Assembly: GCA_964402035.1 (NCBI GenBank)
Contig: CAYOAM010000001.1
Location: 371,558-435,557 of the forward strand
Length of the DNA stretch: 64,000 bases
Direction of reading: 5' to 3'
Source of the DNA: an uncultured Candidatus Saccharibacteria bacterium
GTDB taxonomy: Bacteria; Patescibacteriota; Minisyncoccia; Phycocordibacterales; UBA918
Notes under the pieces: generated by a model
Databases searched by the model: none
What the model saw: only the letters and a program-made list of their open reading frames with translations
What the model was told of the DNA's origin: nothing
Shown: positions 18,821 to 61,660 of the stretch, one piece after another
How positions within the stretch are numbered: the first letter of the stretch is position 1
Layout of the letters: each line of letters begins with the position of its first letter
Translations under genes and position numbers: made by a program

Positions 18821-18822
18821 AA

Positions 18823-29814: not shown

Positions 29815-29945
29815 CCTCTTTTGATTCATACGCGCCTCCCAGCAGTGTGAGGTAAGAAAAATATAAAAAAATCGCCGCTATCTCTAAGGAATGCGGCGGT
29901 TGTTTTGTTAGGTAAGAATAACTTAACTAAAGATGAGGAGCTTCT

Positions 29946-30197
29946 TCACTCGATACGGAACTTCAAATAGGTATGTACCATATACAAGTGCATGAGCTTC
30001 ATAGCTTCTGGACCAAAATTCCTGAGGTTCTGTATTTCAGACTCCGTTCTATTGCAGAGGTCCTCGAAGGTATGTATGCTCGCATTTCGAAACGTTCTCC
30101 TTAAGCTGTTTACCACTCTAGAATGACATATGACGTCAGCATATTCCGCCCAGAAGCGGTAAATCGATCGAGTGAGGATCGTTTCAAAATCATCCAT
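29946..30197 (-). CDS. small protein resembling the RNA polymerase alpha-subunit C-terminal domain (HhH)
   Basis: 83 aa. LRNFGPEAMKL resembles the alpha-CTD hairpin (KNFGKKSL). The preceding SIHTFEDL fits the first helix. Confidence 0.4.
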   Translation of the reverse strand: MDDFETILTRSIYRFWAEYADVICHSRVVNSLRRTFRNASIHTFEDLCNRTESEIQNLRNFGPEAMKLMHLYMVHTYLKFRIE

Positions 30198-30376
30198 TGT
30201 ATCCTACGGCAAGAGTAGCACGTCCCATTCAGGGACATGGTGTCTCTTTGAAACCGAAGGAACTTGCTGAGGGCAAATATATCATGAGTTTAGTCATTGT
30301 CAAATGCGCACATTAAAGAACCGAGCTCTTTGCCCTACAAATACCCCTCCTCACCCATCCATGCTAGGATGCAGAA

Positions 30377-30943
30377 ATGAAAATCGTATCCTCAGTATTT
30401 ATGCGCAGTGTCCAGGGTGATAATGAGATTCTCGATGATGGAATCCCACATATCGCGTTTATAGGACGTTCCAATGCCGGCAAATCGAGCCTCATCAACT
30501 CTCTGACCGGAGTAAAAAATCTTGCCATAAGCGGCAAGACTCCTGGCCGAACACAATCTATCAATGTGTTTTTGATTAACGGTTCTCACTATTTTTTAGA
30601 CCTACCTGGCTATGGATTTACAAAGCGAGACGCAGGGACGCACGAACAATTTGGGAAACTAATCTATTGGTACCTCTTTGATTCGAAACATACACAAAAA
30701 GTAGTACTTATTGTCGACGCAGAAATTGGCCCTACCGATAGTGATATTGCCATGCTCGAAGACCTAGTGCGCGCACACAAAGATATCATCATTGTACTCA
30801 ATAAAGTAGATAAGATTAAGAAATCACAGTACAAGCATCACATAGAAAAGATTGCCTCCCGGCTTTCTCCACATAAAATCTTTGTTCACTCCGCCATAAG
30901 TAAAGTAGGCAAACAAGAATTAATCGATCAACTCTTGGGTTAG
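30377..30943 (+). CDS. engB: ribosome biogenesis GTP-binding protein EngB/YsxC/YihA
   Basis: G1 motif IAFIGRSNAGKSSLINSLTG, G3 motif DLPGYGF, G4 motif NKVDK. 188 aa. Confidence 0.8.
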   Translation: MKIVSSVFMRSVQGDNEILDDGIPHIAFIGRSNAGKSSLINSLTGVKNLAISGKTPGRTQSINVFLINGSHYFLDLPGYGFTKRDAGTHEQFGKLIYWYLFDSKHTQKVVLIVDAEIGPTDSDIAMLEDLVRAHKDIIIVLNKVDKIKKSQYKHHIEKIASRLSPHKIFVHSAISKVGKQELIDQLLG

Positions 30944-30984
30944 ATAAGATACAGACAGGTTATTTCTTTTGTTATAATTGAAAC

Positions 30985-31515
30985 ATGAGTTTTGAGAATC
31001 AATCAGAGAGCATCCGCTTCCCCCACATTGCAAAGGAACTTAAAGCGATGGTCGACATTGACCAAGATATGCGTAATCGTAATCGTAGCGATGATTACTG
31101 GGATGAAACAATTGACGTAAAACATACTGAACGAATGAAACAGATTGTTTCAGAAATTGGATGGCCTACTATATCAAAAGTAGGAATTGTGGGAGCTAGT
31201 AATGCGTGGCTTTTAGTGCAGCACGCTAATCATGATGTAGATTTTCAAGAGCACTGCTTACAGCTGATGAAGGAAGCGCCAGCTGGTGAAGTTAGTATCA
31301 TCGACACTGCCTACCTGACAGACAGAGTAAACGTTCACCGAGGCAAGGGTCAAATATATGGAACTCAAGTTACGCGCGAAAATGGAAAACATATTCCACG
31401 TACGATCGAAGACGAAGTACATGTAGACGCGAGACGCGCCGCAATCGGAATGGGACCACTTTCAGAATATATTGAAATGATTTACAAACAATACCCAATC
31501 AATAACGAGAAGTGA
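30985..31515 (+). CDS. hypothetical protein
   Basis: 176-aa ORF. No motif recognised. Confidence 0.4.
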   Translation: MSFENQSESIRFPHIAKELKAMVDIDQDMRNRNRSDDYWDETIDVKHTERMKQIVSEIGWPTISKVGIVGASNAWLLVQHANHDVDFQEHCLQLMKEAPAGEVSIIDTAYLTDRVNVHRGKGQIYGTQVTRENGKHIPRTIEDEVHVDARRAAIGMGPLSEYIEMIYKQYPINNEK

Positions 31516-31797
31516 TTTGATTCAGTTTACAACAATATCCACAATATTTAACTCCTGACAGTTCCTTAACTGTCAGGAGTTAAAATTTTTTTCTAGAATG
31601 AAGGGAAATAGGGTCAATCACCATTTCTCATTCTTTCTCACCAAAAAAAGTACCTGACACCTTTTCCACTTTTCCTTTTCCTATATCACCTCTTCCACTA
31701 CAAAACTATGAAAGCGCGCGATTGGGTGGCAGATTTAAAAGTTATCGTTTAGGCAGTATTTCGATACCCCCAAAGAGAGTTTAGAACTATTGACTTT

Positions 31798-32457
31798 TTG
31801 TATATACATGGTACATTGCCATCAGCTCTTTCACATTTTGGAGAACTTCCGATGAAGTCCGTTACCCTCACACTCGACTACCGCACCATCGAACAACTCA
31901 TCGACCTGATAGATGAACCACACAGGGTGATTTGTCACAAAATCCTCGTCGACAACCGCGTGCTTTTTGAAAAAACACGTGGCTCGACACACAATCACCA
32001 GACATGGGAAGGTGGCTACATTGACCATGTGACCGACGGGATGAACTACACTTGCCATCTGTACGCATTTGATACCGCCTTTGGCAGACCAATGCCGTTT
32101 ACGTTATCTGATGCCCTGCTTGTCTTTTTTCTCCATGACCTCGAAAAACCGTGGCGGATACAGGTGGATGAGCGAGGCAAAGCATCAAACCGTGAAGGTC
32201 TTCAAACCAAGGACGACTTCAAGAGGTTCCGTGACAAAAAGCTCGCCGACTACGGTCTCGTCCTCAACCCAAACCAGCTGAACGGCTTCACCTACGTCGA
32301 AGGAGAGCTGGCCGACTACAGCAGTTTGCGTCGAGTGATGAATGAACTCGCTGCCTTCTGCCACAAAGTCGATAACTGGTGTGCCCGGGGATGGTATGAC
32401 TACCCAAAAGCCGAAGGTGACGAGTGGACAGGGGCAAAGCGATTTCGTACTACATGA
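31798..32457 (+). CDS. hypothetical protein, possible HD-domain phosphohydrolase
   Basis: HNHQTWEGGYIDHV ... FFLHDLEKPW resembles the H...HD metal-binding pattern of HD domains. Confidence 0.4.
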   Translation: MYIHGTLPSALSHFGELPMKSVTLTLDYRTIEQLIDLIDEPHRVICHKILVDNRVLFEKTRGSTHNHQTWEGGYIDHVTDGMNYTCHLYAFDTAFGRPMPFTLSDALLVFFLHDLEKPWRIQVDERGKASNREGLQTKDDFKRFRDKKLADYGLVLNPNQLNGFTYVEGELADYSSLRRVMNELAAFCHKVDNWCARGWYDYPKAEGDEWTGAKRFRTT

Positions 32458-39441: not shown

Positions 39442-41127
39442 TCACACCGAATCAGCGGGGTCAAAAACATACTCTGGCATGTGTGCAATCATCCATCCAA
39501 CAAACTGACTAAAGATGGGAGATGCACCGAAAAGGTTTGCTCGTGGACCTCGTTCCATCAACAATACAAATGCATATTTAGGTTTTTCGTATGGATAAAA
39601 TCCCACCACCCAAGAATTTACAAACTCTTTCCGCGATCCCAATTCTGCCGTACCTGTTTTTCCACCAAAATGAATGTCTGGCCGATTGAGCGCACGCGCA
39701 GTCCCTTCCGTCGCAGAAAGGCGCATACCTTCATGAATAATCTTTAGATGTTGCGGATTAATATCTATTTTTTCTGCAAGCTGCGCTTCGCCTTTCACTA
39801 TGAGCGGACGAAGCAACGTACCACCGTTTGCGATGGCGGCGTATGCACGCAACATTTCAATCGGTGTCACCTGAAATCCAAACTGTCCAATGGATGTATG
39901 ATAGGTATCCCCTAGTCTCCAATCGTCATCAAACACTTCCTTTTTCCAAACTGGATTTGGAATAACGCCGACAGATTCTCCTGGTAGTGCGATACCGGTC
40001 TTTGTATCAAAACCGAACCGATGCATGTAGTCATATATTTTTGTTATACCAAGACCTGGCTGATCACCAAATCCTCCACCGACATAATAAAAATATACGT
40101 TCGATGAAACCGAAATAGCATGCCGCATATCGACGTACCCATGCGCTCGCCAATCCATAAACACCGACGGCTGCGATGGATTGTATTTGTTTGGCAGAAT
40201 CAGTGAACCCGTGCTTAATATCTCTTTTTCAGGACTTATAATCCCTTCACCAAGTGCAGCAAGCGCCATAAAAGGTTTAACAACAGAACCGGGTGTATAA
40301 ATACCCGCAACAATTTTGTTCAAAAAAGGCAATCGGTCATCGGCATTGTATGCCGCCAACTCCTCTGCACTTCCGCGCGTCATAACCTCGGGATCAAAGG
40401 CCGGATAACTCGCGAGCGCTACAATTTCTCCCGTCTCAACATCCATAATGACTCCTGCACCGCTACGGAAGCCCACCTTGGTCGCTGACGTCGCTATTTG
40501 ATCATAGAGTGCCTCACTCAGCTTTGCATCAATAGTGAGCGAGATAGGGGTACCTGGCTCGGGTGCATGCACCACATGCTCGGATATCGTCTCTCCAAAT
40601 GCATCAACTTCAAGTAGCTGTTCACCATTGGTGCCATGCAACACGTCCCCAAATGATTCCTCGACACCACCGCGTCCCGTATAGTCAGTACGAAAATAGT
40701 AGCCGGCTTTGTCCTTTTTTGGATAATTGACGTACCCCAGGAGCTGCCCCAACCCTCTCCGGTCGGTATACACACGCTCGGCAAAATCGCTCGCATCATC
40801 ACTTTCTGCATTCCACGCAAGCCGCTCACCCGTTCGATCAAAAATGACTGCGCGCTCAGCAAAAATAATGTTTCGATCAAGATGATTGTTTACACTACGC
40901 TTGGCGTACGCCGCTCCCGATACGACCTGCAGTTGTATCAGTTGACCTAAAAATACCAAAGCTATGAGCGTAAAAAGCACCCCCACACCAAAGACACGAA
41001 AGCGTGTGAGCGGCTGCTCGAGTCGACCTTCTAACCGTCCACGATTAAATTCCGGAAGATTTGAAGCGTCCATAAAGATCTGCTCGACATCAATGGTTTT
41101 TTTCTTTCGGGGTTTTAAAAAAAACAT
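39442..41127 (-). CDS. mrdA: peptidoglycan D,D-transpeptidase, class B PBP2 (MrdA-like; elongasome copy)
   Basis: TM anchor, SxxK (SVVKP), SxN (SSN) and KTGTA motifs. Downstream of mreBCD. Confidence 0.85.
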   Translation of the reverse strand: MFFLKPRKKKTIDVEQIFMDASNLPEFNRGRLEGRLEQPLTRFRVFGVGVLFTLIALVFLGQLIQLQVVSGAAYAKRSVNNHLDRNIIFAERAVIFDRTGERLAWNAESDDASDFAERVYTDRRGLGQLLGYVNYPKKDKAGYYFRTDYTGRGGVEESFGDVLHGTNGEQLLEVDAFGETISEHVVHAPEPGTPISLTIDAKLSEALYDQIATSATKVGFRSGAGVIMDVETGEIVALASYPAFDPEVMTRGSAEELAAYNADDRLPFLNKIVAGIYTPGSVVKPFMALAALGEGIISPEKEILSTGSLILPNKYNPSQPSVFMDWRAHGYVDMRHAISVSSNVYFYYVGGGFGDQPGLGITKIYDYMHRFGFDTKTGIALPGESVGVIPNPVWKKEVFDDDWRLGDTYHTSIGQFGFQVTPIEMLRAYAAIANGGTLLRPLIVKGEAQLAEKIDINPQHLKIIHEGMRLSATEGTARALNRPDIHFGGKTGTAELGSRKEFVNSWVVGFYPYEKPKYAFVLLMERGPRANLFGASPIFSQFVGWMIAHMPEYVFDPADSV

Positions 41128-41407: not shown

Positions 41408-42331
41408 TTATGGTGCTTCCGCCGTCGTCGAAGCTGTTGTTGAAGCGATAGGTAAGCTCTCGATTAGCGTCCCTATGCTCGAAGTTCCTTGCAGATAATG
41501 AGATTTTGTATAGGCAACCATACGTTCGGCCTCTTCAAACGATATCGGCTCAAGTGCCTTTGTATCAATCGCAACAAAGCGCAATGTATTGATCGGTGGT
41601 TGCATTGTGACATACGCATATTGCTCCGGTTTTGATGGATCAACCTCAAGATTTTCAACCAAACCAAAAACGGCGGAAGGTGTTGTCGGTATAACGACAG
41701 GATCCCGTAGGGAGACAGGAACTCCTTGCGGCACTCCGAGCCGTACAACACCACCACCCATCCCCGTACCGTGCACAAAAATATTGGCTCCATATATGTA
41801 CATAGGACTCTTGACGCCCGCGGTCGAAAACAGCACGACAAATGCACTACCCGGAAGCACGCGACCAACCGTACCGATAACTGCGCCATTGCCGTACACC
41901 AAAGCGCCTTCGACGATGCCGTCTGCCGACCCCTGATCAACAACCAATGAATCATACGGTGTTTCATAGGGTCGACGTACGATGTTTGCTACGATCCGTG
42001 ACGAGTTGGCACTACTCGCCATAGGAAACAATTTTTTTTCTTCCGCCAATATACGCACATAGAGTTCGTCAACATGTGCACGTACCAATCGCTCCCGCAG
42101 CTCCTCATTTTCTTGTTGCAGAGCAGCGCGCGAGCGAAAATAAAATGGAATCATCGAATCAGATGTCACGAGCCACACACGCACCACAGAAAGTGGAGCA
42201 ATCACATACGAAGTCAAAAAACTAAGGGGTCCCGAAAAAAAGAATACTCCAATGCACGCAACGGCGACAGCAAAAAACACGTTCCGTCGTGTGCGTGTTG
42301 TTCTAAAACGCTGCTGAGAATTCATTCTCAT
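41408..42331 (-). CDS. mreC: rod shape-determining protein MreC
   Basis: N-terminal TM + coiled-coil, then a Gly-rich beta-domain (VVDQGSADGIVEGALVYGNGAVIGTV). Confidence 0.75.
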   Translation of the reverse strand: MRMNSQQRFRTTRTRRNVFFAVAVACIGVFFFSGPLSFLTSYVIAPLSVVRVWLVTSDSMIPFYFRSRAALQQENEELRERLVRAHVDELYVRILAEEKKLFPMASSANSSRIVANIVRRPYETPYDSLVVDQGSADGIVEGALVYGNGAVIGTVGRVLPGSAFVVLFSTAGVKSPMYIYGANIFVHGTGMGGGVVRLGVPQGVPVSLRDPVVIPTTPSAVFGLVENLEVDPSKPEQYAYVTMQPPINTLRFVAIDTKALEPISFEEAERMVAYTKSHYLQGTSSIGTLIESLPIASTTASTTAEAP

Positions 42332-43373
42332 TATCTATAAGCACTTCAGCATACCGATCCATATGCTCAAGAATTATGCCAGTACCGCGGACGACCGATG
42401 TCAGTGGATCAGGGACCACAATCACCGATACCTGTAACACTTCTTCGAGGAGACCAGCAACTCCCGGTATGAGTGAACCACCACCCGCAAGATAGATACC
42501 GCGCTGCATTATATCAGAGAGGACTTCAGGAGGCGTACGCTCCAATACGTCTCGGACGGCCTCAACAATACTATCGATTGAATGTGATATTGCTTCACGG
42601 ATATCAGCGTCGGTGATCACCACTTCACGCGGTAATCCGGTCACCACATCACGACCACGGACCACTGTCTCACGAGCAGCATCAAGTCTCACGATCGATG
42701 CGAGCAATATCTTTACATCTTCGGCCGTCTTATCCCCGATTAATATTTTAAAGTGATCGCGAATATAACTGGTGACATCATCGTCCAGTGTATCGCCCGC
42801 CACGTGCAAATTTCGGGATACCACGATGCCATTGAGAGAAATAACCGCGATGTCGGTTGTACCACCCCCAATATCAATAATCATATTCCCGACAGGTAAA
42901 TGAACGGGGAGTTTCGCACCGATAGCCGCAGCCATCGGCTCCTCGACAAGAAATACTTCACGCGCGCCGGCATTGCGCGCCGCATCACGTGCCGCCCGCA
43001 TCTCAACGTTCGTAATCCCGGATGGAACACCAATAAGAACACGCGGACCAACGAGTGATCGTGAGTCAGCGCGCACCTTTGCTATTAAATATGCCAGCAA
43101 TTCTTCCGTCATCTCAAAATCTGAAATAACACCATCAACCAGCGGTCGCACTACTGCGATATGGGCTGGTGTGCGTCCCAGCATATTTTTTGCCGCCTTT
43201 CCAACAGCAACCAACTGATCCGTTTTTTTATTGATAGCCACTATGGTGGGCTCGTTGAGAATGATGCCCTTATTCTTTTGATATACGAGGGTGTTTGCCG
43301 TACCAAGATCAATCCCAATATCAGTTGAGATAGTACCTAAAATACGCTGCGCAATTCGCCTAAGCTGAATCAT
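42303..43373 (-). CDS. mreB: rod shape-determining actin homolog MreB
   Basis: Actin-fold motifs DIGIDLGTANT (phosphate 1), DIGGGTTD (phosphate 2), adenosine motif and GIYLAGGGSL. Confidence 0.9.
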   Translation of the reverse strand: MIQLRRIAQRILGTISTDIGIDLGTANTLVYQKNKGIILNEPTIVAINKKTDQLVAVGKAAKNMLGRTPAHIAVVRPLVDGVISDFEMTEELLAYLIAKVRADSRSLVGPRVLIGVPSGITNVEMRAARDAARNAGAREVFLVEEPMAAAIGAKLPVHLPVGNMIIDIGGGTTDIAVISLNGIVVSRNLHVAGDTLDDDVTSYIRDHFKILIGDKTAEDVKILLASIVRLDAARETVVRGRDVVTGLPREVVITDADIREAISHSIDSIVEAVRDVLERTPPEVLSDIMQRGIYLAGGGSLIPGVAGLLEEVLQVSVIVVPDPLTSVVRGTGIILEHMDRYAEVLIDNENEFSAAF

Positions 43374-46386: not shown

Positions 46387-47013
46387 TTAACGTTGTATGG
46401 GTAGCGCAAGTGAAAGATGCTCAAGCAACATCTTTACCGATGATCCTCGAGCGAGAAAATGCCGCGAAACCACCGCAAGATCCCTAAGCACCGCGGTATG
46501 CATGGACGCATGAAAGATTTCTTCAAGCGAAGAAATGAGTTCACCACACCACGCCATATCCTTTGCCTTATGCCGACGAGCTATTTCTTCAAATCGTTGT
46601 GCATATGACAGCGCCAAAAAATCGGATGCCACGCGATGCTCTATTCGTGTATGCAAAAGACGGACCACTTCAAAACGAGAACGTAACGTAGGGAGGATGC
46701 GATCATCGCGGTCGATCGAAAGCACAAATGCACTCGTCAGCGGAGGATCTTCAAAAAGTTTCAAAAGTGCGTTCTGCGCCTCATGTGTGACGTTGTCAGT
46801 ACGGATAACAAATACGCGATACGGCCTAACTACGGGTCGCTGATACGCGTACTGTTGCAGTGCCCGCACTTCCTCAATGCCAAATACCGTATAAACAAAC
46901 GCTTGGTAGTCAGGATTTCCTACCGTATCCTCGTCCACTATGCCATGCAGACTTGATGCCTTTTGTTGGGCAGCTTCCCAGGATCCTACAAGTAGATATG
47001 CATGATGCGCCAT
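46387..47013 (-). CDS. holB: DNA polymerase III delta-prime-like clamp-loader subunit (short)
   Basis: HAYLLVG start, sensor motif EAQNALLKLFEDPP (matching AANALLKTLEEPP), and SRC-like LRSRF. No Walker A, as expected for delta-prime. Confidence 0.55.
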   Translation of the reverse strand: MAHHAYLLVGSWEAAQQKASSLHGIVDEDTVGNPDYQAFVYTVFGIEEVRALQQYAYQRPVVRPYRVFVIRTDNVTHEAQNALLKLFEDPPLTSAFVLSIDRDDRILPTLRSRFEVVRLLHTRIEHRVASDFLALSYAQRFEEIARRHKAKDMAWCGELISSLEEIFHASMHTAVLRDLAVVSRHFLARGSSVKMLLEHLSLALPIQR

Positions 47014-47042: not shown

Positions 47043-48479
47043 TTACGCAGCTTGCTGCATACCAGCCATCACAACACGACGCACAAAATGTTCAACAAGC
47101 TCACGTTCAATCGGCAGTAGTTTGTATGCATCGCGCCACGCTCGCAGATTTTCACCGACATTATTAAACGTCTCAGGACGGATTTCTTTTGGAATAGTGC
47201 CATCATTATGGAGCAAGTCTTCAATCATGATATGTCGTACCGCAATCCAATCGGGATGCTGCGTGCCCGACTGCCCACCGATGCCGAGGAAACCTGTGGT
47301 ACCTAACCAACGCGTAAGCAAATCATTGAGACCTTTTGTCACCTCAGGGGCCAACAGCGGATCGATCGGTGTACTTTCTCTGAGCACTGCAGCATTTGCA
47401 TCACCCACATTCTTTTGCTTTTCAGTTAGAATGCTCCCTGCGGTCACTACACCAGAAGCAGGAGCACGGGGCACTGCTACTGGTGCAGACGGAACAGCAT
47501 CTGGTCTTGGAATTGATGGCGTCGTCACCGCTTCATTACTCTGTTTATTGATCACGATGTCGAGTGGTGCATCGACATGCTTACTGGTGCCATAATTGGT
47601 CGGCGCAGAAACATCGACTGGTGGAGGTGGAGGGACAGCAGCCTCCACAACTGGCTTAGTGAGAATTGAGACACGCGCTTTCAGAACGGCAGGCGGAGGG
47701 ACGGATGCTGCTGCCGATGGAGGAGTGGTTTCTGGCTTCGGCACATGACTATCTTTTCCCACAACCATACGTACTGATTCCGCTTGTTTTTTCAAACCCT
47801 CCAAACGCTGCTCTAAAGCAGGTATATCAATACCTGCAGTTATTGATGCAAGTGCCGCTCGAATCTCAAGCAACTCTTTTACATACTCGCGATACCCAGT
47901 CGTCGTATCATTGAGCCACTGAAATGCTCTTCCACGTCCAAATGCAATGAGCTCATCGTTTGTCTTTTCGAGCCGAGTGCGCAAGGCCTGTATTGCAGTA
48001 TCCACTCCTGTGCCCGCCGAAGTTTCCGACACTGCTACTACGGGTTCGGCTTGAGGTACTGGCACGGGCGCTGAAGTAACCGAAGCCGCAACGGGTGCTC
48101 CAAAATCAGGTCCTCGCTTTCGCGGAGCAGAAACGACCGCATCTACAGACGATCGTGCGGGGTCGACTGACTGGACTTCTATCTTTTTTGATACGACAAC
48201 AGGAGCAGGTGCGTCAGGTGTAGTAGGCGCAGATGCAGGTTGTGTGGCTGGAAGCGCTGCCACAGGAACAAGAAAGTGGGCAAGCGTTTTTAATTGTGCG
48301 TCAACATGAGCAGGAGTTCCACCTCCTCGCGCAAGCTGCATAAGTTCATCACGAAGTGTATTGTACGCCGCACGCTCAACATCATTAAAAGAAGCAGATG
48401 CTTTCTGAAGCGTCACAAACATACGCGCACGATCGGCAGCATTTTTTATATCAAAATTCTGAGGAGCATTTCCGTTCAT
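47043..48479 (-). CDS. hypothetical protein with a long Pro/Ala/Val-rich low-complexity linker
   Basis: 478 aa. A structured N-terminal ~110 aa, a >200-aa P/A/V-rich region (PPPPVDVSAPTNY...) and a C-terminal ~120-aa domain. No signal peptide seen. Confidence 0.5.
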   Translation of the reverse strand: MNGNAPQNFDIKNAADRARMFVTLQKASASFNDVERAAYNTLRDELMQLARGGGTPAHVDAQLKTLAHFLVPVAALPATQPASAPTTPDAPAPVVVSKKIEVQSVDPARSSVDAVVSAPRKRGPDFGAPVAASVTSAPVPVPQAEPVVAVSETSAGTGVDTAIQALRTRLEKTNDELIAFGRGRAFQWLNDTTTGYREYVKELLEIRAALASITAGIDIPALEQRLEGLKKQAESVRMVVGKDSHVPKPETTPPSAAASVPPPAVLKARVSILTKPVVEAAVPPPPPVDVSAPTNYGTSKHVDAPLDIVINKQSNEAVTTPSIPRPDAVPSAPVAVPRAPASGVVTAGSILTEKQKNVGDANAAVLRESTPIDPLLAPEVTKGLNDLLTRWLGTTGFLGIGGQSGTQHPDWIAVRHIMIEDLLHNDGTIPKEIRPETFNNVGENLRAWRDAYKLLPIERELVEHFVRRVVMAGMQQAA

Positions 48480-48523
48480 ACGATACCACTACTATAGCAT
48501 CACCCAAATCGGCAACCGAGATG

Positions 48524-51262
48524 TCATCGTTGATAACGTGCTTGAATATCATTTTCAATAGCAGCTCGTTCTTTTCCGTACCGCACGTACGACGCGTTCA
48601 TGAGCGCCTCAATACGGTGAGCGTCACCAACAACAGGAGGAAATGTAGCGATGGAAAATGGTTTTGCCGGCACTCCCTCGACCAACATGCGTACGTATGC
48701 ATGTCTGTTTTCTATGTGCATCAAATCATGCGCTTTAAACTCTGGTGCAAATTGCTTTTCCAAAAATTCAGCGTCAGCAGAACCGACACGAAACGCACAG
48801 ATTGAACCCACGTTGCCAAAAACCGCATCACGAATTTTTTCATCTATTTGCGCTATAAACTGGTGTGCTATTGTGAGCCCAAGCTTGTATTTGCGCGCCT
48901 CAGAGAGAATCGATGCGATCGAGTTTGTGGTGATATTTTGAAACTCATCGATGTGGAGATAAAACGGTGCGTAGTCGCCCGATCGATCATCGACGCGTGA
49001 GAGCGCAGCCATGAGTATTTTTCCGACAATGATCATACCGATGAGGTTCGCATTGATTTCTCCCAAACGCCCCTTGGAGAGATTTACCAATAAAATTTTC
49101 TTACTGTCCATCACTTCACGCATATTAAATGCAGATGTTTGTTGACCAATGATCGGACGCATAAAATCGTTTGCGGTAAAGATATCAAACTTGGAGGTGA
49201 TATACGGCACCATATTTTCAAGCGCAGCATCTCCGCCGGCCTTGGTCGCAATTTCTTTCCAAAACTGGATGACGACGGGATTTGTCGCTTTGCTCAATTT
49301 GAGACGACGAAATTCGGCATCAGCCATGACGCGAGAGACATCGAGCAAAGTTGAACCACTTTGAGGATCATCAAGGACGAGCATGGTGGCGTTTCTAAAA
49401 TACTGTTCAAATATCGGACCCATTGATTCCGGTACCGCGCCATACAATTTTTGAAAAATTGAAAAAAGTTCGTTGACAACAAACGTTTTCTGCTCGGGAA
49501 ATTGCGGATCGTACTCGAGCATGTTGAGTCCGAGCACATGTTCCGTGTGCGCAGGATCAAAATAGATAATATCTTTTTCTCGCTCAGGGGGAACAGCAGC
49601 CAATACATCTGCAATATCGGTACCGTGTGGGTCAATAAAGCACACGCCTGCCCCATTTTTCATGTCGTCAATCACCATGTTTTTGAGCAATACCGATTTT
49701 CCCGTACCGGTCTGCCCCACGACATAAAAATGTCGCAGACGATCTTGTGGCGAAATATAAATATCAGTTTCTTTGCCACGATGTGAATTTTTTCCAATGC
49801 GCGTCCCTTGCTGCGGCATTACGATCGGTGCGGGAGCAGTTTTTGCTTGCACCTGTTTAAATTGTGGCGCAAGTTCATTGCTACCACGCGGTATATGGAT
49901 GAGTGTTGCAATTTCGCGCTCAGACAGTGGCAGTGCATACTCGTCTGCAAACTCACGAAATGAGAATCGTTGTAGTTCGCGCGTGCTCGTCCGACCCTTG
50001 AGCGTAGAAAAAGAAATACTATTTCCCATGGTGTGTTCAAACTGATTGAACGCCGCCTCTATTTCATGGACGAGCTGCTGCGCACGTGCTTCTTCCTTTG
50101 CTGAAATAGCGATACGTATCACCACCTCATGAATGGGTCGTTCAATCTTCTTTTGAAACAATTCGAGTTTCTCTTGCGGTATATCGTGCTTCTCTTTCTC
50201 CTCTTCTTTTTTCTTTGAGCTAAACAATTCATCCTGCACAAAGTGTAGGACGCTACCAAACATGGTCGACTGCTCTATCGCCTTGTCAACCGAGGTACCT
50301 TTCCGCACTTTTTTTATAATATCCTCGTACTTTTTTTGATAATCAAATGGACGAGGACGCACTAGTATCTGGAGCGATGCTCCGCCTCCCTCGCGTTCTA
50401 TTTTTGAAAACGCATTCAAGAGAACTCGCAATGGGTCATGGTCAAATGTATCGTACGTCCGTATCGGATAAATCGGAAACTTCTTGAGCTTCGCCACTGA
50501 GACGAGCGAAATTCCACCTTCAGAAAAAATATTGTAGTCATTTTTCTCTTCAGTCAAAACGGCATGTGGAAAAAGTGAGAGTAGCTGTTTTTCAAAAAGG
50601 TCAATGTACTGCGTTGGTACCGCCATATAAAAAACAATGTCGTCACTCTTGTCGGAGACCGCAATTTCGAGCGAATAATGAAAGTGCTGTTTGCGATCAC
50701 CCTTGCCAATGGTCTGGAGTCCCGCAAACAATTGCTCCATCGCCGATATGATAGCCGTCAATTCTTGCGCTTCTTCTTTTTCATCGGGAGATTCTGGGAG
50801 CGACACCGAAAACAATGTCATATGGAGAATATTCCACTCAGGTGCTCCGTCTTTGAAATTTGCAACATGCTTGCCGGTGCGGATATGCGCTACGAGTGCG
50901 CGATGCGCCTCATCGATAATAAATGAGTTTCGTGTTCGCTCAAGCACCGAAAGCGCATTGCGGATACCATAGTCTTCGGCAAGATGTATAACTTCCTCAA
51001 CCTTGTTGCGCGCCACGCTAACCTGCTCTGCAAGTCCGACCGTGAGTGCTGGCGAGAGTCTGCGATCCTCGGGCAAGACGGCGCTCGGTTCATGTTCACC
51101 ATATTCACGCAAAGCGGCCTTGCCCAAGGTCTCATAGTCTGCCGTATCGCCATTCCCTTGCCGCTCCATCATTGTACGTTCACGCTTTGCTATTTCTGCG
51201 CGCAAATACGCAATCTCTGCTTCAGGAGACCCAAAACTCTTCGGTTGTGGCCGCTCACTCAT
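48524..51262 (-). CDS. HerA/FtsK/VirB4-superfamily ATPase (DUF87-like), 912 aa with a large unknown N-terminal region
   Basis: Walker A GQTGTGKSVLLKN is followed by FIDPHGT (HerA/VirB4 DPHGE-like). Walker B YLHIDEFQNI. Arginine-finger segment EARKYKLGLTIAHQ (matching EGRKYGVGL). Confidence 0.7.
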   Translation of the reverse strand: MSERPQPKSFGSPEAEIAYLRAEIAKRERTMMERQGNGDTADYETLGKAALREYGEHEPSAVLPEDRRLSPALTVGLAEQVSVARNKVEEVIHLAEDYGIRNALSVLERTRNSFIIDEAHRALVAHIRTGKHVANFKDGAPEWNILHMTLFSVSLPESPDEKEEAQELTAIISAMEQLFAGLQTIGKGDRKQHFHYSLEIAVSDKSDDIVFYMAVPTQYIDLFEKQLLSLFPHAVLTEEKNDYNIFSEGGISLVSVAKLKKFPIYPIRTYDTFDHDPLRVLLNAFSKIEREGGGASLQILVRPRPFDYQKKYEDIIKKVRKGTSVDKAIEQSTMFGSVLHFVQDELFSSKKKEEEKEKHDIPQEKLELFQKKIERPIHEVVIRIAISAKEEARAQQLVHEIEAAFNQFEHTMGNSISFSTLKGRTSTRELQRFSFREFADEYALPLSEREIATLIHIPRGSNELAPQFKQVQAKTAPAPIVMPQQGTRIGKNSHRGKETDIYISPQDRLRHFYVVGQTGTGKSVLLKNMVIDDMKNGAGVCFIDPHGTDIADVLAAVPPEREKDIIYFDPAHTEHVLGLNMLEYDPQFPEQKTFVVNELFSIFQKLYGAVPESMGPIFEQYFRNATMLVLDDPQSGSTLLDVSRVMADAEFRRLKLSKATNPVVIQFWKEIATKAGGDAALENMVPYITSKFDIFTANDFMRPIIGQQTSAFNMREVMDSKKILLVNLSKGRLGEINANLIGMIIVGKILMAALSRVDDRSGDYAPFYLHIDEFQNITTNSIASILSEARKYKLGLTIAHQFIAQIDEKIRDAVFGNVGSICAFRVGSADAEFLEKQFAPEFKAHDLMHIENRHAYVRMLVEGVPAKPFSIATFPPVVGDAHRIEALMNASYVRYGKERAAIENDIQARYQR

Positions 51263-51357
51263 AGTAGCTTCATCGTACTTGATCTCGCCTACCGCTAGAA
51301 GTGTTTCCGTCCACAGGCCATATCACACAAGAAGGTTGTTGCGCAGCAATCGTCCAA

Positions 51358-52368
51358 TTATTGCTTAGAAACAATACTACGTTTATAAGTATCCAAATGC
51401 TCAAGCGCAATGCCAGTACCTTTTGCGACACAGTAGAGCGCATTGTCCGCAAGAATTGCTTTTACACCGGTACGACGACGTACGAGCTCGGGAAAATTGC
51501 GGAGTTGCGATGTACCTCCCGTCATAATGATGCCTTTATCAATAATATCTGACGCAAGTTCTGGTGGTGTTTCTTGAAATACATCCTTGATTGCTCGCAC
51601 CATGTCACGCAACTCGCGCGAGATAGCACGCACGATTTCATTTGTCTTGATTTCAACCGTACGTGGAAGTCCCGTCAGCAAATCGCGACCTTTGACTTGC
51701 ATCACCAACTCTTCTTCAAGTGGCAACGCTGATCCAATATTTATTTTTACTTCCTCCGCAGTCTTGTCTCCGATTGCAAGGTTGGCACTTTTTTTAACAT
51801 AGTCGATGATGGCGTGATCAATATGATTTCCTGCACACTTCACCGAGTTTGCCGCGACAATACCGCCAAGTGAAATAACCGCAACGTCGATCGTTCCGCC
51901 TCCGACATCGACGATCATGTGCCCACGCGGCTCATATATAGGTATGCCAGCTCCAATTGCGGCGAGGATCGGCTCTTTGACCACATAGGCATTGCGAGCT
52001 CCGACATTCATCGCCGCCTCGACCACAGCACGCTTTTCAGTCGAAGAAACTCCAGCAGGTACCGACACCATGACATCCGGCTTAAATATCGAATACGGTC
52101 CAAGAGCTTTGCGGAGAAAATACCGCAACATCGCCTCAGTCACGCGATAGTCTGCGATGACGCCATCTTTCATCGGACGATACGCACGAATATTTTCTGG
52201 CGTCCGACCCACCATCTCTTTTGCCTCCGCGCCCACAGCAAGGATTTTTTTATCATCAGATATCGCCACAACCGAGGGTTCATTGAGTACAATCCCCCGC
52301 CCAGGGATAAAGACGAGCACATTAGTTGTACCCAAATCAATACCAACTTTTGGAGTGAAATAAGACAT
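51358..52368 (-). CDS. second actin-like MreB/Mbl paralog
   Basis: Actin-fold motifs VGIDLGTTN, DVGGGTIDVAV and IIMTGGTSQL. 336 aa. Shares only low identity with the mreB at 42303..43373. Confidence 0.8.
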   Translation of the reverse strand: MSYFTPKVGIDLGTTNVLVFIPGRGIVLNEPSVVAISDDKKILAVGAEAKEMVGRTPENIRAYRPMKDGVIADYRVTEAMLRYFLRKALGPYSIFKPDVMVSVPAGVSSTEKRAVVEAAMNVGARNAYVVKEPILAAIGAGIPIYEPRGHMIVDVGGGTIDVAVISLGGIVAANSVKCAGNHIDHAIIDYVKKSANLAIGDKTAEEVKINIGSALPLEEELVMQVKGRDLLTGLPRTVEIKTNEIVRAISRELRDMVRAIKDVFQETPPELASDIIDKGIIMTGGTSQLRNFPELVRRRTGVKAILADNALYCVAKGTGIALEHLDTYKRSIVSKQ

Positions 52369-52501: not shown

Positions 52502-52984
52502 ATGAACAATTCTTCAATGCAAGCAAACCCCTGCATTCTTGTTGCTTTACGTGGAGGTATCAAGGATGCGTTTGCCGAAATCATAAGGCAAATCGAGCTA
52601 TTAGAAATGGAATTCGATGCACTGCGTTTGAGACCGCTCGACTCCGAAGAAGAGAGACGATTCCTACTTTCTTTTCACAAAGAAATAGGCGTCTCTCTAA
52701 AAAGTATATTGCGTCAATCCGCCACGATGGATGTTGTCAATACAATGACATCAATCGACACTGTTCTCTGTCTTTACGCATTCGCCACAAGCAACCGATG
52801 CATTGAAAAGGTGAAACCAAGAACGATTGTTGTTCTGACAGAATTTAGGGTGACGTTTCAAGCTCTTGACCGGGCACGAAAATGGCTTCAAAGGGAAGTT
52901 GAATACATTACCAACCCGCCACCATTGTGGTGGCGCATACTTGCGGGTCTAACGAACAGCCGAGCACCGTTGCGCGGTCGGTAA
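52502..52984 (+). CDS. hypothetical protein
   Basis: 160-aa ORF in the divergent region between mreB2 and murA. No motif. May be spurious. Confidence 0.3.
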   Translation: MNNSSMQANPCILVALRGGIKDAFAEIIRQIELLEMEFDALRLRPLDSEEERRFLLSFHKEIGVSLKSILRQSATMDVVNTMTSIDTVLCLYAFATSNRCIEKVKPRTIVVLTEFRVTFQALDRARKWLQREVEYITNPPPLWWRILAGLTNSRAPLRGR

Positions 52985-53095: not shown

Positions 53096-53155
53096 CAGTA
53101 TCTGTCCTTACCTTGAGATCTTCCCTCAAAGTCTATATTGACGTATCATTTCGCT

Positions 53156-54493
53156 ATGACCGATCCTAAAAGCCACAAGATCAATGTCAGTCTCTCTATT
53201 GAAGGCGGACACCCACTCTCGGGGACTATTGAAACAAACACCAGCAAAAATGGTGCTGTTGTGCTCTTGGCCGCTTCCCTACTCAACAAAAAAACCACAA
53301 CGCTGCACAAAATGCCACAGATCGAAGAGGTGTTTCGCCTCATTGAAGTGTTGCGCAGCATCGGAGTTGTCGTCACCTGGAGCGGTTCAACACTCACTCT
53401 AACTCCACCTCCAAAATTTTTACTTGACGATGTCGATGTACCCGCAGCACAGCTCACCCGCAGCATTTTGATGTTTATTGGTCCCCTACTGCATCATTTT
53501 TCTTCTTTTTCACTTCCTCAGTCAGGCGGATGTAGACTCGGTGCACGCACAGTACGTCCGCACTTTTTTGCACTCGAACCATTGGGAGTTGCAGTCACAA
53601 CCGAAGAAGAGCGCTTCAATATTTCACACGAGAAGCTTACACAGCCTGCAGAAATCATCCTCTATGAGTCTGGCGACACGGTCACAAACAACCTCACCAT
53701 GGCGCTCGCACTAATGGAAGGCACGACGACAATCAAGTACGCCTCAGCCAACTACCAAGTGCAGGAGCTCTGTTTCTTCCTCGAAAAATGTGGGGTCAAG
53801 ATTGAAGGAATTGGATCTACCAACCTCACCATCACCGGTGTACGTGAAATCGCACAAGATATTGAGTACACACTTTCAGAAGATCCGATAGACAGCATGT
53901 TTTTTATCGCTACAGCGATCGTGACGAAGTCTGCGATCACTATCACTCGCGCGCCGATCGAATTTCTGGAACTCGAACTTTTGAAATTGGAAAAGATGGG
54001 TTTTGTGTACACCAAAAGCGCTCCGTACTTCTCACACAATGGTCGCACCAAACTTGTCGACATTCATACACAACCATCCAAGCTCATTGCACCAGAAGAA
54101 AAAATTTATGGCCGCCCCTATCCGGGACTCAATATCGACAACCTCCCATTTTTTGCTGTCATTGCGACACAAGCCGACGGACAGACACTGATCCATGACT
54201 GGGCATACGATGGCCGCGCCATCCACTACACCGAACTTTCAAAACTCGGAGCCGAAGTACTGCTGGCTGACCCACATCGCATCTTTATCTCAGGACCATC
54301 GACCCTAACACCTGCCGATCTCACCTGTCCTCCAGCACTACGGCCTGCAGCGATACTCTTAATCGCCATGTTGGGTGCGGAAGGCACGTCCAAACTCCGC
54401 AATATCTATAGTATCAAGCGTGGCTACGAAAACTTGGCTGAACGACTTGCTTCGATTGGTGCGCATATCACCTCCTTTGAAGAAGATCTCTAA
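53156..54493 (+). CDS. murA: UDP-N-acetylglucosamine 1-carboxyvinyltransferase
   Basis: EPSP-synthase-fold repeats. The conserved N-terminal (L/V)SG-type segment (GGHPLSGTIETNTSKNGAVVLLAASLL) and the active-site Cys region. The start is trimmed to MTDPKSHKINVS. Confidence 0.9.
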   Translation: MTDPKSHKINVSLSIEGGHPLSGTIETNTSKNGAVVLLAASLLNKKTTTLHKMPQIEEVFRLIEVLRSIGVVVTWSGSTLTLTPPPKFLLDDVDVPAAQLTRSILMFIGPLLHHFSSFSLPQSGGCRLGARTVRPHFFALEPLGVAVTTEEERFNISHEKLTQPAEIILYESGDTVTNNLTMALALMEGTTTIKYASANYQVQELCFFLEKCGVKIEGIGSTNLTITGVREIAQDIEYTLSEDPIDSMFFIATAIVTKSAITITRAPIEFLELELLKLEKMGFVYTKSAPYFSHNGRTKLVDIHTQPSKLIAPEEKIYGRPYPGLNIDNLPFFAVIATQADGQTLIHDWAYDGRAIHYTELSKLGAEVLLADPHRIFISGPSTLTPADLTCPPALRPAAILLIAMLGAEGTSKLRNIYSIKRGYENLAERLASIGAHITSFEEDL

Positions 54494-54640: not shown

Positions 54641-56527
54641 ATGTTTGTTATTGAAATTACTCCCATTGGTCGTGGTGTTTTGGCTGAATCACTCTCCTAT
54701 TTTTCGCATACCGCCTACCCACTGGGCGCACTACTCTCCATTGCCGTTCGAAAAAGTACTCAACTCGGTGTCGTGACCAAAATCACCGATGCTTTTTCAA
54801 TGAAAACTGCGCTGCGTGCAGCAACATTTTCACTGCGCAAGCTCGACGAACAGGTACCAAAGCATCATCTTTCACCGCATATCATAGAGACAGCAACCAA
54901 GGCTGCTGCTTTTTACGCTGCATCCATGGGATCCGTTCTTTTTTCGTTGATCCCAAAAGAGATACGCGAAGGAACCATTCCTTTTTTAGAAGGGACTGAA
55001 CACAATGATATACTCCCCAATACTGAAAAACCCTACGTATTTATTGCCCCCGCAAAAGAACGGTACCGTGAATATCGGAGAATGGTGCGAGAATCGTTTG
55101 CAAATAAAAAATCAGTGCATTGTGTACTGCCAACGCTCGAGTATGTGAGCGAGGTACAAGACCTACTAAGTACCGGCATCGAGGCATACACCGTACTACT
55201 ACACAGTGGCCAGCCCAGGTCTTCCTTCCAAAAAATGTACGAGCGGCTACGAAATGAAGGACATCCACTGCTCATCATCACAACTCCAGGACATGCTTTT
55301 ATTGATAGAAAAGATATTGGCACGGTTATCGTGGAGCACGCACGGTCAAACGGGTATCGTGCAAAAATACGGCCATATATCGACTACCGCTTTGCGCTTG
55401 AGGTGCACGCGACCGCACACCGCCGCACACTGATATATGCAGATACCGTGGCGCGCTCCGAAGAAATATATCGATTGCACAACGGGAGTGCTACGTCATT
55501 TGGAGAACTGCCAAAAAGACACAGTCTCCCAGCAACACTGCAGGTCATCACCATGGAAAGCGAAGCAGACCCAGCAACTTTTTTGCTTATATCACCAGAG
55601 CTCAAAAAGCACTTGGAGCTCGCGGTAAAAAACAAAGAGCGGTTCTTTCTGTATTCAGCACGACGTGGACTCGCGCCACTTGTCGCATGTGCTGATTGTA
55701 AACATATTTTTAGAGACCCACATTCAGGATCACCGCTCGCGCTCATACGCGCAGCGCATCATGGTGAACAAAAAAGATTCTTGGTGAGTTCTGTGTCCGG
55801 ATATCGCATGTTGGCACCTGACACCTGCCCCACCTGCGGCGGATGGCGTCTGCGCGAACGAGGCATTGGTATTCAGCATGTGTACGACGAACTTTCAAAG
55901 ATCATCGATCCTGCATCTATATTTTTGTTTGACCATATCACCGCATCGACACACAAAAAAGCGCAGAAAATCCGAGACTCATTTTATGAAAAAAAAGGAT
56001 CGATTCTTTTGGGAACCGCCCTCGCACTGCCATACATTGCGCACCCCGTACACCACAGCGCTATCATGAGTATGGACTCTCTTCGTGCCCTCCCCTCGTG
56101 GCGACAACAGGAAGAAGTATTTGCACTCATGATGTCACTGCGCGAAAAGACGATGGGCAGCGTCTTTGTGCAAACCCGGAGTGAGGATGATATTTTTGAA
56201 TTGGTCCGCCGTGGTGAATTGCAGGAGTTCTATGACCAAGAACTCAAATTGCGCGAACAATTTCGTTATCCGCCCTACGATATTTTTTTGCATCTTACGT
56301 GGTATGAAAGTGAGAACACTACAACCACTCGGGATATGCTTGGGCAACAGTTTGCACCATACGCCATTTCCCTTTATAGTGCACCCAATGTGAGCGCTGG
56401 AAAACAGCTATGGTACGGACTTATACGCATCCCGCGTTCAGACTGGCCTTTAGAAGAACTTTCCCAACAGTTACGAACGCTCCCGCCCACAATTCGTATT
56501 ATGATTAACCCTGATCGTATTATCTGA
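54641..56527 (+). CDS. priA: primosomal protein N' (PriA)-like protein with degenerate ATPase motifs
   Basis: The PriA-like N-terminal domain, the conserved-order helicase-core segments (VLLHSGQ..., LLIITTPGHAF) and the C-terminal Zn-finger cysteines CADCKHIF...CPTCGGW are all present. The Walker A position reads IAPAKERY and the DExH position reads VEHAR. Confidence 0.55.
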   Translation: MFVIEITPIGRGVLAESLSYFSHTAYPLGALLSIAVRKSTQLGVVTKITDAFSMKTALRAATFSLRKLDEQVPKHHLSPHIIETATKAAAFYAASMGSVLFSLIPKEIREGTIPFLEGTEHNDILPNTEKPYVFIAPAKERYREYRRMVRESFANKKSVHCVLPTLEYVSEVQDLLSTGIEAYTVLLHSGQPRSSFQKMYERLRNEGHPLLIITTPGHAFIDRKDIGTVIVEHARSNGYRAKIRPYIDYRFALEVHATAHRRTLIYADTVARSEEIYRLHNGSATSFGELPKRHSLPATLQVITMESEADPATFLLISPELKKHLELAVKNKERFFLYSARRGLAPLVACADCKHIFRDPHSGSPLALIRAAHHGEQKRFLVSSVSGYRMLAPDTCPTCGGWRLRERGIGIQHVYDELSKIIDPASIFLFDHITASTHKKAQKIRDSFYEKKGSILLGTALALPYIAHPVHHSAIMSMDSLRALPSWRQQEEVFALMMSLREKTMGSVFVQTRSEDDIFELVRRGELQEFYDQELKLREQFRYPPYDIFLHLTWYESENTTTTRDMLGQQFAPYAISLYSAPNVSAGKQLWYGLIRIPRSDWPLEELSQQLRTLPPTIRIMINPDRII

Positions 56528-60925: not shown

Positions 60926-61660
60926 TCACGACCTTGGCACCATCTCCTGTGGAATCATCTTAATGGATAAATGAACTCGTTCAGTATTATAGTATCGCAG
61001 ATATTTTTTCAACGCACAGTTGATTGCACGCACATCAGTGGGTACATGGTCTAAACACTCCTCTTGGAGAGTTCTGTTGAAGCGCTCAATGTGTGCGTTG
61101 TCGTTTGGTTTCCCGATACGCGAATAGCGATGGTCATGCTTGATTCTGGAGACAAACCATGACGAGAACTCAGGTCCATGATCAGACTGCAGCATCGAGA
61201 ATCGAAAGGTGCAGTGTCGTGCTGCTTCGCGCACGAAACGCACACTGGTTCTGCCGTTCATGCGCGCGTATGCTTTCGCATACGCAACACGAGAGTTCAC
61301 GTCGATGAGTGAGAACACATACAGTCGCTTTTTCTGGTCAATCATGCGGTGGATGGTATCGATTTCCACTAAGGAACCTGGCCGTGCTGCGATCGGTCGA
61401 TCGATATGCGGGTGGTACCGTTTCCACGGACTTCGTTTCTTGAGGAGCCCGTGTCGTTCGATGGTACGGTGTACCGTATTTCGAGACACCATCACCCCCT
61501 CACGCATGAGCATCAGATGTATTGCTTCCGTACATCGCCCCGTACTGAGCCGCAGGCGTACAATCCGTTGTTCGACTGCATCGGGAATACTGCGTGGATG
61601 ATGACGAGGACGAGAGCTTCTGGTGGGTATGGTATGATACCCAATCCTCTTCGCTCTTCA
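60926..61660 (-). mobile_element. IS3-family transposase OrfB (DDE integrase core) fragment without a detectable orfA (truncated IS remnant)
   Basis: The 195-aa ORF carries the rve-domain pattern (LMREGV..., VEIDTIHRM, DHGPEF, IERFNRTLQEE). The same frame extends upstream to ~61660 without a stop (...IPDAVEQRIVRLRLSTGRCTEAIHL). No HTH orfA or slippery heptamer was found. The next plus-strand gene starts at 61903. Confidence 0.6.

Follow-up and report, generated by a model that had tools for sequence, protein, structure and literature searches.

VirD4-like type IV coupling protein (T4CP) homologues are found nearly throughout the Patescibacteria, with 5,713 of them reported in 2,918 of 3,035 genomes (~ 96%), and 148 of these homologues lie near virB4 (Quinonero-Coronel et al. 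2025, PMC12102498). VirB4 itself was found in 2,417 genomes, as compared with the 2,918 that carry T4CP homologues. The patescibacterial VirB4 clade derives from monoderm conjugation systems and clusters with VirB3, VirB6, VirB8 and TrsD, often near dnaA and dnaN (PMC12102498). The T4CP homologue of S. epibionticum is not essential for epibiotic growth, and exaptation of these proteins is a possibility that, in the words of the authors, "cannot be ruled out" (PMC12102498). Here we describe an ATPase of 912 amino acids (aa) encoded in a 64,000-nucleotide (nt) stretch of contig CAYOAM010000001.1, from an uncultured Candidatus Saccharibacteria bacterium; this whole stretch is referred to as the window. 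The nearest named relatives are metagenome-assembled genomes of Kaiserbacteria, Parcubacteria and Paceibacteria. The ATPase gene lies between the genes of a second MreB paralog (MreB2) and of a Pro-rich protein, and an earlier sequence-only reading of the window had proposed that the three products form one apparatus.

We find that the ATPase is best explained as an orphan motor of the T4CP family, juxtaposed with MreB2 by a lineage-specific rearrangement, and we put the probability of this explanation at roughly 0.7. This figure takes in a broad exaptation reading, discussed below, and most of the remainder corresponds to action in trans with a chromosomal type IV secretion system (T4SS). The features of the ATPase gene in the window are the following.

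48524..51262, minus strand: open reading frame (ORF) of the ATPase, 912 aa, predicted soluble, FtsK/HerA/VirB4/VirD4 superfamily, with a DUF8128 domain and a DUF87/TraG-D_C-type P-loop
50828..51262, minus strand: N-terminal helical extension, aa 1-145, as predicted by model and alignment
49868..50827, minus strand: DUF8128 domain, aa 146-465, with a VirB4 N-terminal-domain-like predicted fold
48527..49807, minus strand: P-loop half, aa 486-912, by profiles nearest to T4SS coupling proteins
49694..49717, minus strand: Walker A, GQTGTGKS, aa 516-523, from the translation
48941..48958, minus strand: Walker B, LHIDEF, aa 769-774, from the translation
48878..48901, minus strand: EARKYKLG, aa 788-795, candidate arginine-finger segment, from the translation

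The motifs on which the sequence-only reading had based its HerA/FtsK/VirB4-superfamily call (GQTGTGKS, DPHG, HIDEF and ARKYKLG) are all present, DPHG occupying residues 544-547. Their key residues are invariant in an alignment of 45 family members reaching down to 30% identity, namely G516, G519, K522, D544, P545, G547, D772, E773, E788, R790 and K791, together with Q801 and Q805. The role of EARKYKLG as an arginine finger is suggested by analogy with FtsK/HerA-class ATPases. With a Walker A motif, a Walker B motif of the hhhhDE type and a conserved downstream arginine, the protein belongs to the FtsK/HerA/VirB4/VirD4 P-loop superfamily, and motifs, profiles and fold all support the original call at this level.

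Profile searches can offer a finer placement within the superfamily. As judged by them, the P-loop half is nearest in sequence to coupling proteins. It matches the NCBIfam model TIGR03743 (TraD) at E 1.9e-13, and the score of 49.8 bits against a trusted cut-off of 366 indicates homology and not equivalog-level membership. The Pfam family TraG-D_C matches the same half (E 8e-4). The DUF87/HerA match in Pfam (E 1.8e-6) is confined to about 50 residues around Walker A, and the HerA and DUF87 matches in Pfam and PADLOC together cover aa 495-547 only. In a direct search of PDB sequences with the ATPase, TrwB is the sole match. A diverse family profile finds TrwB at 1e-6, DotL at 7e-6 and HerA at 0.003 in the same database, and VirB4 is absent from these profile matches. 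Likewise, the VirB4 sequence models (TIGR00929, E 0.027; TraC, E 0.01; VirB4_plasma) give no significant match, with 13-14 bits against cut-offs of 567-643. Relatives of the ATPase carry the TrwB_AAD_bind, T4SS-DNA_transf and TraG-D_C families and are annotated at source as "TraM recognition domain-containing" or "T4SS DNA-binding domain-containing"; ten distant representatives of the family bear no informative names. FtsK itself, an identity that the sequence-only reading had named as one that would count against its proposal, finds no support: FtsK_SpoIIIE (PF01580) matches weakly (E 0.016) over aa 503-530, the P-loop alone, and neither an FtsK_gamma match in Pfam nor a transmembrane (TM) helix or membrane domain is present, which excludes FtsK as its identity.

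The T4CP-like P-loop module also occurs behind other N-termini, as in two relatives with a response-regulator receiver domain (P0232 and P0253). In others, DUF8128 stands at the N-terminus of giant fusion proteins (1200-2006 aa), one of which, P0170 (L088:7001-13021), is encoded between pheST/YkuD and gyrBA. A third class of relatives that share only the P-loop half and occur in accessory contexts outside the candidate phyla radiation (CPR) was set aside as uninformative.

The N-terminal half, previously left unassigned, now falls to DUF8128 (PF26449), a match that is precomputed for exactly the window protein (P0001) and for its homologs; a full-text search found no literature on this family. 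A model of aa 140-465 has a predicted local distance difference test score (pLDDT) of 82 and a predicted template-modelling score (pTM) of 0.83, and all 13 of its Foldseek matches at E <= 1e-3 are chains of TrwK, the VirB4 of R388. The full-length model is collinear with TrwK over about 900 columns, a match that stands ahead of those to HerA (4d2i, E 1e-6) and to the classical coupling proteins DotL, Cag-beta and TrwB (E 7e-6 to 1e-4). The ATPase displays the VirB4-type succession of an N-terminal domain and a C-terminal P-loop domain. The extension at aa 1-145 is all-helical in the model and missing from relatives of ~ 800 aa, which align from residue ~ 146. In R388, the N-terminal domain of VirB4 contacts VirB3 and VirB8 (7o42 and 8rtd structures).

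As judged by a hydropathy scan only, the ATPase has no TM helix or signal peptide, and no hydrophobic segment is seen in the first 700 residues. The sole Kyte-Doolittle peak (1.87, aa 736-754) coincides with the core helix before Walker B. Hence, the protein combines a VirB4-type two-domain build with a coupling-protein-like P-loop half, and it is without the classical VirD4 membrane anchor. The classical VirD4 proteins (TrwB, DotL, Cag-beta and the product of pLS20 gene 48) are the best sequence-profile matches of its P-loop half, but they carry an N-terminal transmembrane domain and an all-alpha domain, where the ATPase has the VirB4-N-terminal-like domain and no TM helix; the VirD4 of pLS20 has two TM helices (PMC8557374). 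VirB4 (TrwK; PDB 7o42, 8rtd) belongs to the same P-loop superfamily, whereas no significant sequence-model match to it and no VirB4 among the profile-PDB matches were obtained. HerA and FtsK/SpoIIIE share the superfamily, the Walker A and B motifs and the conserved arginine; in contrast, the HAS-barrel, the FtsK gamma domain and a membrane domain are not detected in the ATPase, and no NurA is present.

Homologs outside the CPR give the closest view of where such a protein might work. By tblastn, two-domain homologs (query ~ 195-900, 22-27% identity) are found on plasmids of Bacillus, Streptomyces, Staphylococcus and others, and phages carry them too (Bacillus phage G, SP-10 and Geobacillus phage TP-84). 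A "replication-relaxation family" gene directly follows the homolog gene on three plasmids, NZ_CP032854 and NZ_OX419581 of B. subtilis and NZ_CP108778 of Embleya. The homologs on these plasmids adjoin genes for TcpD, TcpE or PrgI and for a second ATP-binding protein, which takes the position of VirB4, so that the homologs occupy the coupling-protein slot of a monoderm conjugation module. The N-domain alone is recognized by blastp in Embleya (9e-7), phage TP-84 (1e-5) and B. subtilis (1e-3), and the C-domain matches the T4CP-slot proteins at 9e-55 and 6e-32; against the VirB4-slot proteins of the same plasmids, only the P-loop aligns, at E >= 0.002. These Tcp/Prg-like plasmid ATPases share both domains with the window protein (22-27% identity over 75-80% of the query, E to 7.5e-63), along with the same Walker motifs and the TraG-D_C-type region. 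They differ in adjoining relaxase-family and T4SS genes, of which the window ATPase has none nearby, and in lacking its 145-aa helical N-terminal extension; the Embleya protein has an N-terminal hydrophobic helix that the window ATPase is without. The Bacillus plasmids concerned were also considered as pLS20-like and rejected as such, since in pLS20 the T4CP gene does not adjoin that of the relaxase and its product has two TM helices at the N-terminus.

The occurrence of homologs on plasmids and in Bacillus and Geobacillus phages raises the question of whether the ATPase might be a component of HerA-type anti-phage defence, or a remnant of a plasmid, an integrative and conjugative element or a prophage. 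A strong match to phrog_5156 (E 7e-71; function unknown) in PHROGs points in that direction, as do PADLOC matches, all weak, to HerA models and, over the P-loop half only, to mad8 (E 1e-12). However, the HerA matches are limited to the Walker A region, and no nuclease, Sir2, NurA, relaxase, integrase or T4SS gene is adjacent in the window or recurrent in 80 related loci. The base composition of the region is ordinary (guanine plus cytosine (GC) content 0.47-0.49). GTDB species representatives with a full-length ortholog (44-67% identity) number at least 584, and the position of the gene in them is stable, clade-specific and of housekeeping type, the opposite of what a mobile element or defence island displays. 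Neither a distribution that is patchy and varies between strains nor a nuclease or effector partner that recurs in the neighbourhoods of the family was seen. We regard an origin of this kind as hardly credible.

Among window ORFs of at least 150 aa, no relaxase or T4SS partner was found, and the genes that recur around the ATPase in the 80 related loci include none either; VirB3, VirB6 and VirB8 (PrgI, PrgH, PrgL) are absent from the window and these loci. The earlier statement that pilin, secretin and NurA are missing was borne out for ORFs of at least 150 aa in the 64-kb window, with no other T4SS gene either. In this respect the ATPase resembles the published orphan T4CP homologues (PMC12102498), which belong to the same phylum, are near-universal and lie away from virB4 and relaxases; unlike patescibacterial VirB4, its gene is not in a dnaA/dnaN-type VirB4 cluster. 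Profile matches, source annotations and context lead us to infer that the ATPase family and these published homologues are the same. The published account gives them as counts from searches with hidden Markov models (HMMs), and the VirB4-N-terminal-like domain, the missing anchor and the gene contexts are not described there (PMC12102498). TrsD, a VirB4-N-terminal-like protein abundant in Patescibacteria, was considered as an identity for the ATPase and rejected, TrsD being mostly adjacent to virB4.

The distribution of the ATPase and its gene neighbourhoods indicate a core gene rather than a component of a mobile element or defence island, because its conservation is housekeeping-like and its neighbourhoods are varied and of housekeeping type. 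Its relatives at E <= 1e-30 fall into 5,212 clusters at 50% identity. From the ortholog loci (at least 584), 80 were taken with their flanks and searched by tblastn with every window neighbour; features were counted over 65 loci, divided into a close clade (ATPase at least 55% identical, 9 loci) and distant loci (below 55%, 56 loci). In the loci that also carry frr, rseP and proS, the ATPase is ~ 60% identical, similar to these three, with holB at 41% and the Pro-rich protein at ~ 27%. Across the 65 loci, map is upstream of the ATPase in 23 and ndk downstream in 24 (ATPase 44-51% identical in both cases), a holin-family protein with four TM segments is upstream in 12 (48-51%), and YqeY is downstream in 4 (47-51%). 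Three distant contexts recur: rpsE-rplO-secY-adk-map-[ATPase]-ndk-membrane protein-beta-CASP RNase; the 4-TM holin-family protein, then the ATPase, a long variable protein, FKBP and tgt; and the ATPase followed by YqeY and RmuC.

These contexts bear on a full exaptation of the ATPase to a T4SS-independent role, such as chromosome or DNA translocation at division or the processing of imported DNA. Such a role would explain the place of the gene in a ribosomal-protein/secY operon and its near-universal retention. It agrees with the location of the gene in 23-24 of the 65 loci, where it follows the rpsE-rplO-secY-adk-map run and precedes ndk, with the housekeeping-like level of conservation, and with the finding that T4CP homologues occur in more genomes than VirB4 and almost never beside virB4 (PMC12102498). 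Nevertheless, neighbourhoods in tiny genomes consist mostly of housekeeping genes whatever the function of a gene, and the VirB4-N-terminal-like domain suggests docking to membrane partners of T4SS type. If the non-essential S. epibionticum homologue is an ortholog, it also argues against an essential division role (PMC12102498), and any substrate in this scenario is hypothetical. We consider full exaptation unlikely on balance.

In ~ 19 related loci, the gene that starts 12-54 nt after the ATPase encodes a long (580-1400 aa), very fast-evolving protein. These proteins have no Pfam match and display a Gly/Ala-rich hydrophobic segment, a LysM-like "Y.V..GDTLW.I" motif and low-complexity regions. 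BLAST groups them into two families with only weak mutual similarity (hhalign probability 41%), and such a gene is absent from the window. The C-terminal domain of the Pro-rich protein was compared with their C-termini as possible kin, which was rejected (hhalign probability < 1%). The loci are as follows.

L007:7824-12038, long downstream protein
L010:2942-5317, long downstream protein
L011:9753-12614, long downstream protein
L012:2870-6478, long downstream protein
L035:9750-12545, long downstream protein
L062:9764-12094, long downstream protein
L018, L019, L022, L024, L026, L028, L032, L036, L039, L041, L050, L056 and L058: long downstream protein, first plus-strand ORF after the ATPase

This protein could be the real partner or substrate of the ATPase. 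A more far-reaching proposal, which we rate as quite improbable, is that the ATPase is an autonomous core motor in Paceibacteria, no longer a T4SS accessory and fixed in the secY-adk-map ribosomal operon in many lineages. Imported or chromosomal DNA could then be translocated or processed by it, with the VirB4-N-terminal-like docking domain replacing the anchor, and it may work together with the long fast-evolving proteins encoded 12-54 nt downstream. In the lineage of the window, the position after MreB2 could place such a motor under cell-envelope-linked expression.

The immediate neighbours of the ATPase gene, to which the proposal of a joint apparatus refers, are listed here with the housekeeping genes around them.

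53138..54493, plus strand: murA, divergent, conserved upstream neighbour of MreB2 (PF00275)
51358..52368, minus strand: MreB2, 336 aa, second MreB paralog (ORF and PF06723)
47043..48479, minus strand: Pro-rich protein, 478 aa, three conserved islands and two Pro-rich linkers (ORF)
46387..47013, minus strand: holB, DNA polymerase III delta', at the head of the downstream housekeeping genes (PF13177)
42303..43373, minus strand: MreB1, canonical MreB (PF06723, E 1.3e-130)
41408..42331: MreC, after MreB1 and of its set
39442..41127: PBP2-type transpeptidase (Transpeptidase/PBP_dimer), after MreB1-MreC

The layout as first described is exact: three minus-strand genes with gaps of 95 nt (MreB2-ATPase) and 44 nt (ATPase-Pro-rich gene), flanked by holB, frr and murA. 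A further gap of 29 nt separates the Pro-rich gene from holB, with which the run holB-frr-rseP-proS-MreB1-MreC-PBP2 begins. MreB2 is a full-length MreB (PF06723, E 4.6e-130, 433.7 bits against a cut-off of 27, profile positions 3-326 of 327; TIGR00904, 429.7 bits, above the cut-off of 365.75). It is 43% identical to MreB1, which MreC and PBP2 follow, and is thus a paralog distinct from the canonical set, as had been noted.

On the proposal put forward in the sequence-only reading, an MreB-like filament would position the ATPase and the Pro-rich protein would serve as a tether, in an apparatus for DNA uptake or cell-cell attachment. The three genes share a strand and short gaps, no terminator-like sites were seen between them, the arrangement recurs in 8 of the 9 closest-clade loci, and the Pro-rich gene is present only where the ATPase occupies the site. 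The wider comparison points the other way. MreB is found within 3 kb upstream of the ATPase in 8 of the 9 close loci (ATPase 56-61% identical) but in none of the 56 distant ones (Fisher p 1.8e-9). Even within the clade, genes intervene: an opposite-strand APH gene lies between MreB2 and the ATPase in L004, and 2.4-4 kb of genes separate the ATPase from the Pro-rich gene in L011, L012, L035 and L062. MreB2 evolves far more slowly than the other two: its identity is 80-84%, whereas the ATPase reaches 57-61% and the Pro-rich protein ~ 20-30%.

The same picture emerges when the comparison starts from MreB2. A metagenome scan with MreB2 followed by tblastn yielded 17 orthologs (68-82% identity) with readable downstream sequence. 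In 14 of them MreB2 is directly followed by holB, then by frr-rseP-proS-MreB1(-MreC), with some gaps of only 31-47 nt; in 2 it is followed by the ATPase, these being the two closest (MreB2 82% identical), and in the remaining one by neither. The murA-MreB2 arrangement is conserved in related loci. The widespread arrangement is therefore murA-MreB2-holB-frr-rseP-proS-MreB1-MreC-PBP2, into which the lineage of the window has placed the ATPase and Pro-rich genes, between MreB2 and holB. We infer that these two genes came into the older block by insertion, because the uninterrupted block is the more widely distributed. MreB2 belongs to this cell-envelope/housekeeping block and not with the ATPase.

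The Pro-rich protein itself has a somewhat different build than first described. Its length of 478 aa and its Pro-rich linker character stand, while the single linker of more than 200 residues between two domains gives way to two linkers (aa 76-165 and 246-375, 64-71% Pro/Ala/Val/Ser/Thr) and three conserved islands (aa 1-75, 166-245 and 376-478). It has no match in Pfam, NCBIfam, PADLOC or PHROG, and no TM helix or signal peptide in a hydropathy scan. A word-indexed search returned only 3 relatives, the family being recovered from syntenic ORFs, and iterated HMMs of the three islands against all loci gave matches from the close clade only. The protein is accordingly predicted to be cytoplasmic, rapidly evolving and restricted to its clade. 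As the family is found only in genomes with the ATPase at the MreB2-holB site, the gene is possibly linked to the ATPase insertion; a link to MreB2 is not supported. Since the ATPase and the Pro-rich protein both lack predicted TM helices and signal peptides, export or membrane insertion is expected for neither of them, so that a surface or cell-cell tether lacks sequence support.

Co-occurrence of the three genes across related genomes had been named beforehand as a test on which the proposed apparatus would stand or fall, and it does not hold for the trio. The three genes represent a lineage-specific juxtaposition and not a conserved machine, the ATPase being beside MreB2 in one lineage only, and we consider a joint apparatus very unlikely. 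A literature search for patescibacterial MreB together with DUF87 returned nothing relevant.

The ATPase has a PBP2-type transpeptidase or MreC within a few kb in several distant loci (L087:13779-14522, L073:5008-6621, L029, L030 and L065), and in L073 the PBP2-like gene ends ~ 380 nt upstream of the ATPase. This proximity may be due to chance in small, housekeeping-dense genomes. On the other side of MreB2, an ORF of 160 aa without family match lies between it and murA (52502-52984, plus strand) and is kept at the same position in the close clade (cluster c32: L001-L005, L008, L011, L035 and L062). Located 3' of murA (54641-56527, plus strand) is the gene of a 628-aa protein with no Pfam match and 24-46% identity in relatives, in which it is syntenic with murA and MreB2. 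The Cys-rich motifs of its sequence (CADC...CPTCGG) suggest a candidate PriA-like zinc-binding helicase.

How might an orphan motor of the T4CP family function? The ATPase branch would have been inherited from monoderm conjugation machinery domesticated by Patescibacteria. The protein would oligomerise, most likely into a hexameric ring like its relatives, and the VirB4-N-terminal-like domain would dock it on a membrane partner. ATP would then power the entry of DNA or protein, as macromolecular substrate, into a translocon, for which a patescibacterial T4SS encoded elsewhere in the genome is the likeliest candidate; the ATPase would act on it in trans. Alternatively, the ATPase may have been exapted to a T4SS-independent housekeeping task.

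Several points weigh against this explanation. The N-terminal TM domain of classical T4CPs is absent, and the best whole-chain structural match is VirB4, not VirD4. Of the features that define a T4CP, homology of the nucleotide-binding domain to TrwB/TraD/TraG is found, while a TM anchor and an association with relaxase or T4SS genes are not, and the label "T4CP" here denotes homology and plasmid gene position rather than full membership. The T4CP role of the plasmid homologs is itself deduced from gene position, and the equation of the family with the published orphan homologues is drawn from Pfam and NCBIfam matches of T4CP type and from source annotations. The full-length model is of moderate confidence (pLDDT 72), with part of the P-loop half of low confidence. 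The T4SS of this genome (VirB4, VirB3, VirB6, VirB8) is presumed, the reading having covered the 64-kb window, and the oligomeric state, partner and substrate of the ATPase are all deduced indirectly. Finally, the short gaps and the lack of terminator-like sites make co-transcription of the ATPase with MreB2 possible; counts of promoter and terminator sites are at chance level.

The window displays a few further features away from this locus. The GC content is lower (0.37-0.42, as compared with ~ 0.47 elsewhere) at ~ 14000-20000 and 26000-32000. The first of these stretches encodes a fatty-acid desaturase, a SnoaL/DUF4440 protein and a Rieske protein, and adjoining it are two radical-SAM/B12-binding enzymes and a GH3-family ligase. 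For a reduced Patescibacteria genome this desaturase/Rieske/radical-SAM gene set is unusual, and horizontal acquisition may account for it. At 5620-9210 (plus strand), acetate kinase adjoins a full-length phosphoketolase (XFP), a pair which suggests a phosphoketolase-based ATP route in the organism. An integrase-core (rve/rve_3) ORF of 195 aa at 60926-61513 (minus strand) is probably an insertion-sequence fragment.

For the biology of the group, the comparison dismantles an apparatus of actin, translocase and tether, and thereby removes a tempting but wrong lead. The block in which MreB2 resides makes a pair of MreB paralogs a conserved trait of the group, which may matter for cell shape in ultrasmall bacteria. 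What we add on the ATPase is modest, namely the VirB4-N-terminal-like predicted fold of DUF8128, the lack of a predicted anchor, the plasmid relatives in the T4CP slot and the varied housekeeping contexts; these details sharpen the published suggestion of exaptation for patescibacterial T4CP homologues. They also point to where partners may be sought, among the inner-membrane proteins of the T4SS or in the long variable protein whose gene closely follows that of the ATPase in many genomes. Paceibacteria have discarded most of their biosynthetic capacity, and it is for this reason that the retention of a conjugation-type motor ATPase as a lone core gene in nearly every Paceibacteria genome asks for an explanation.

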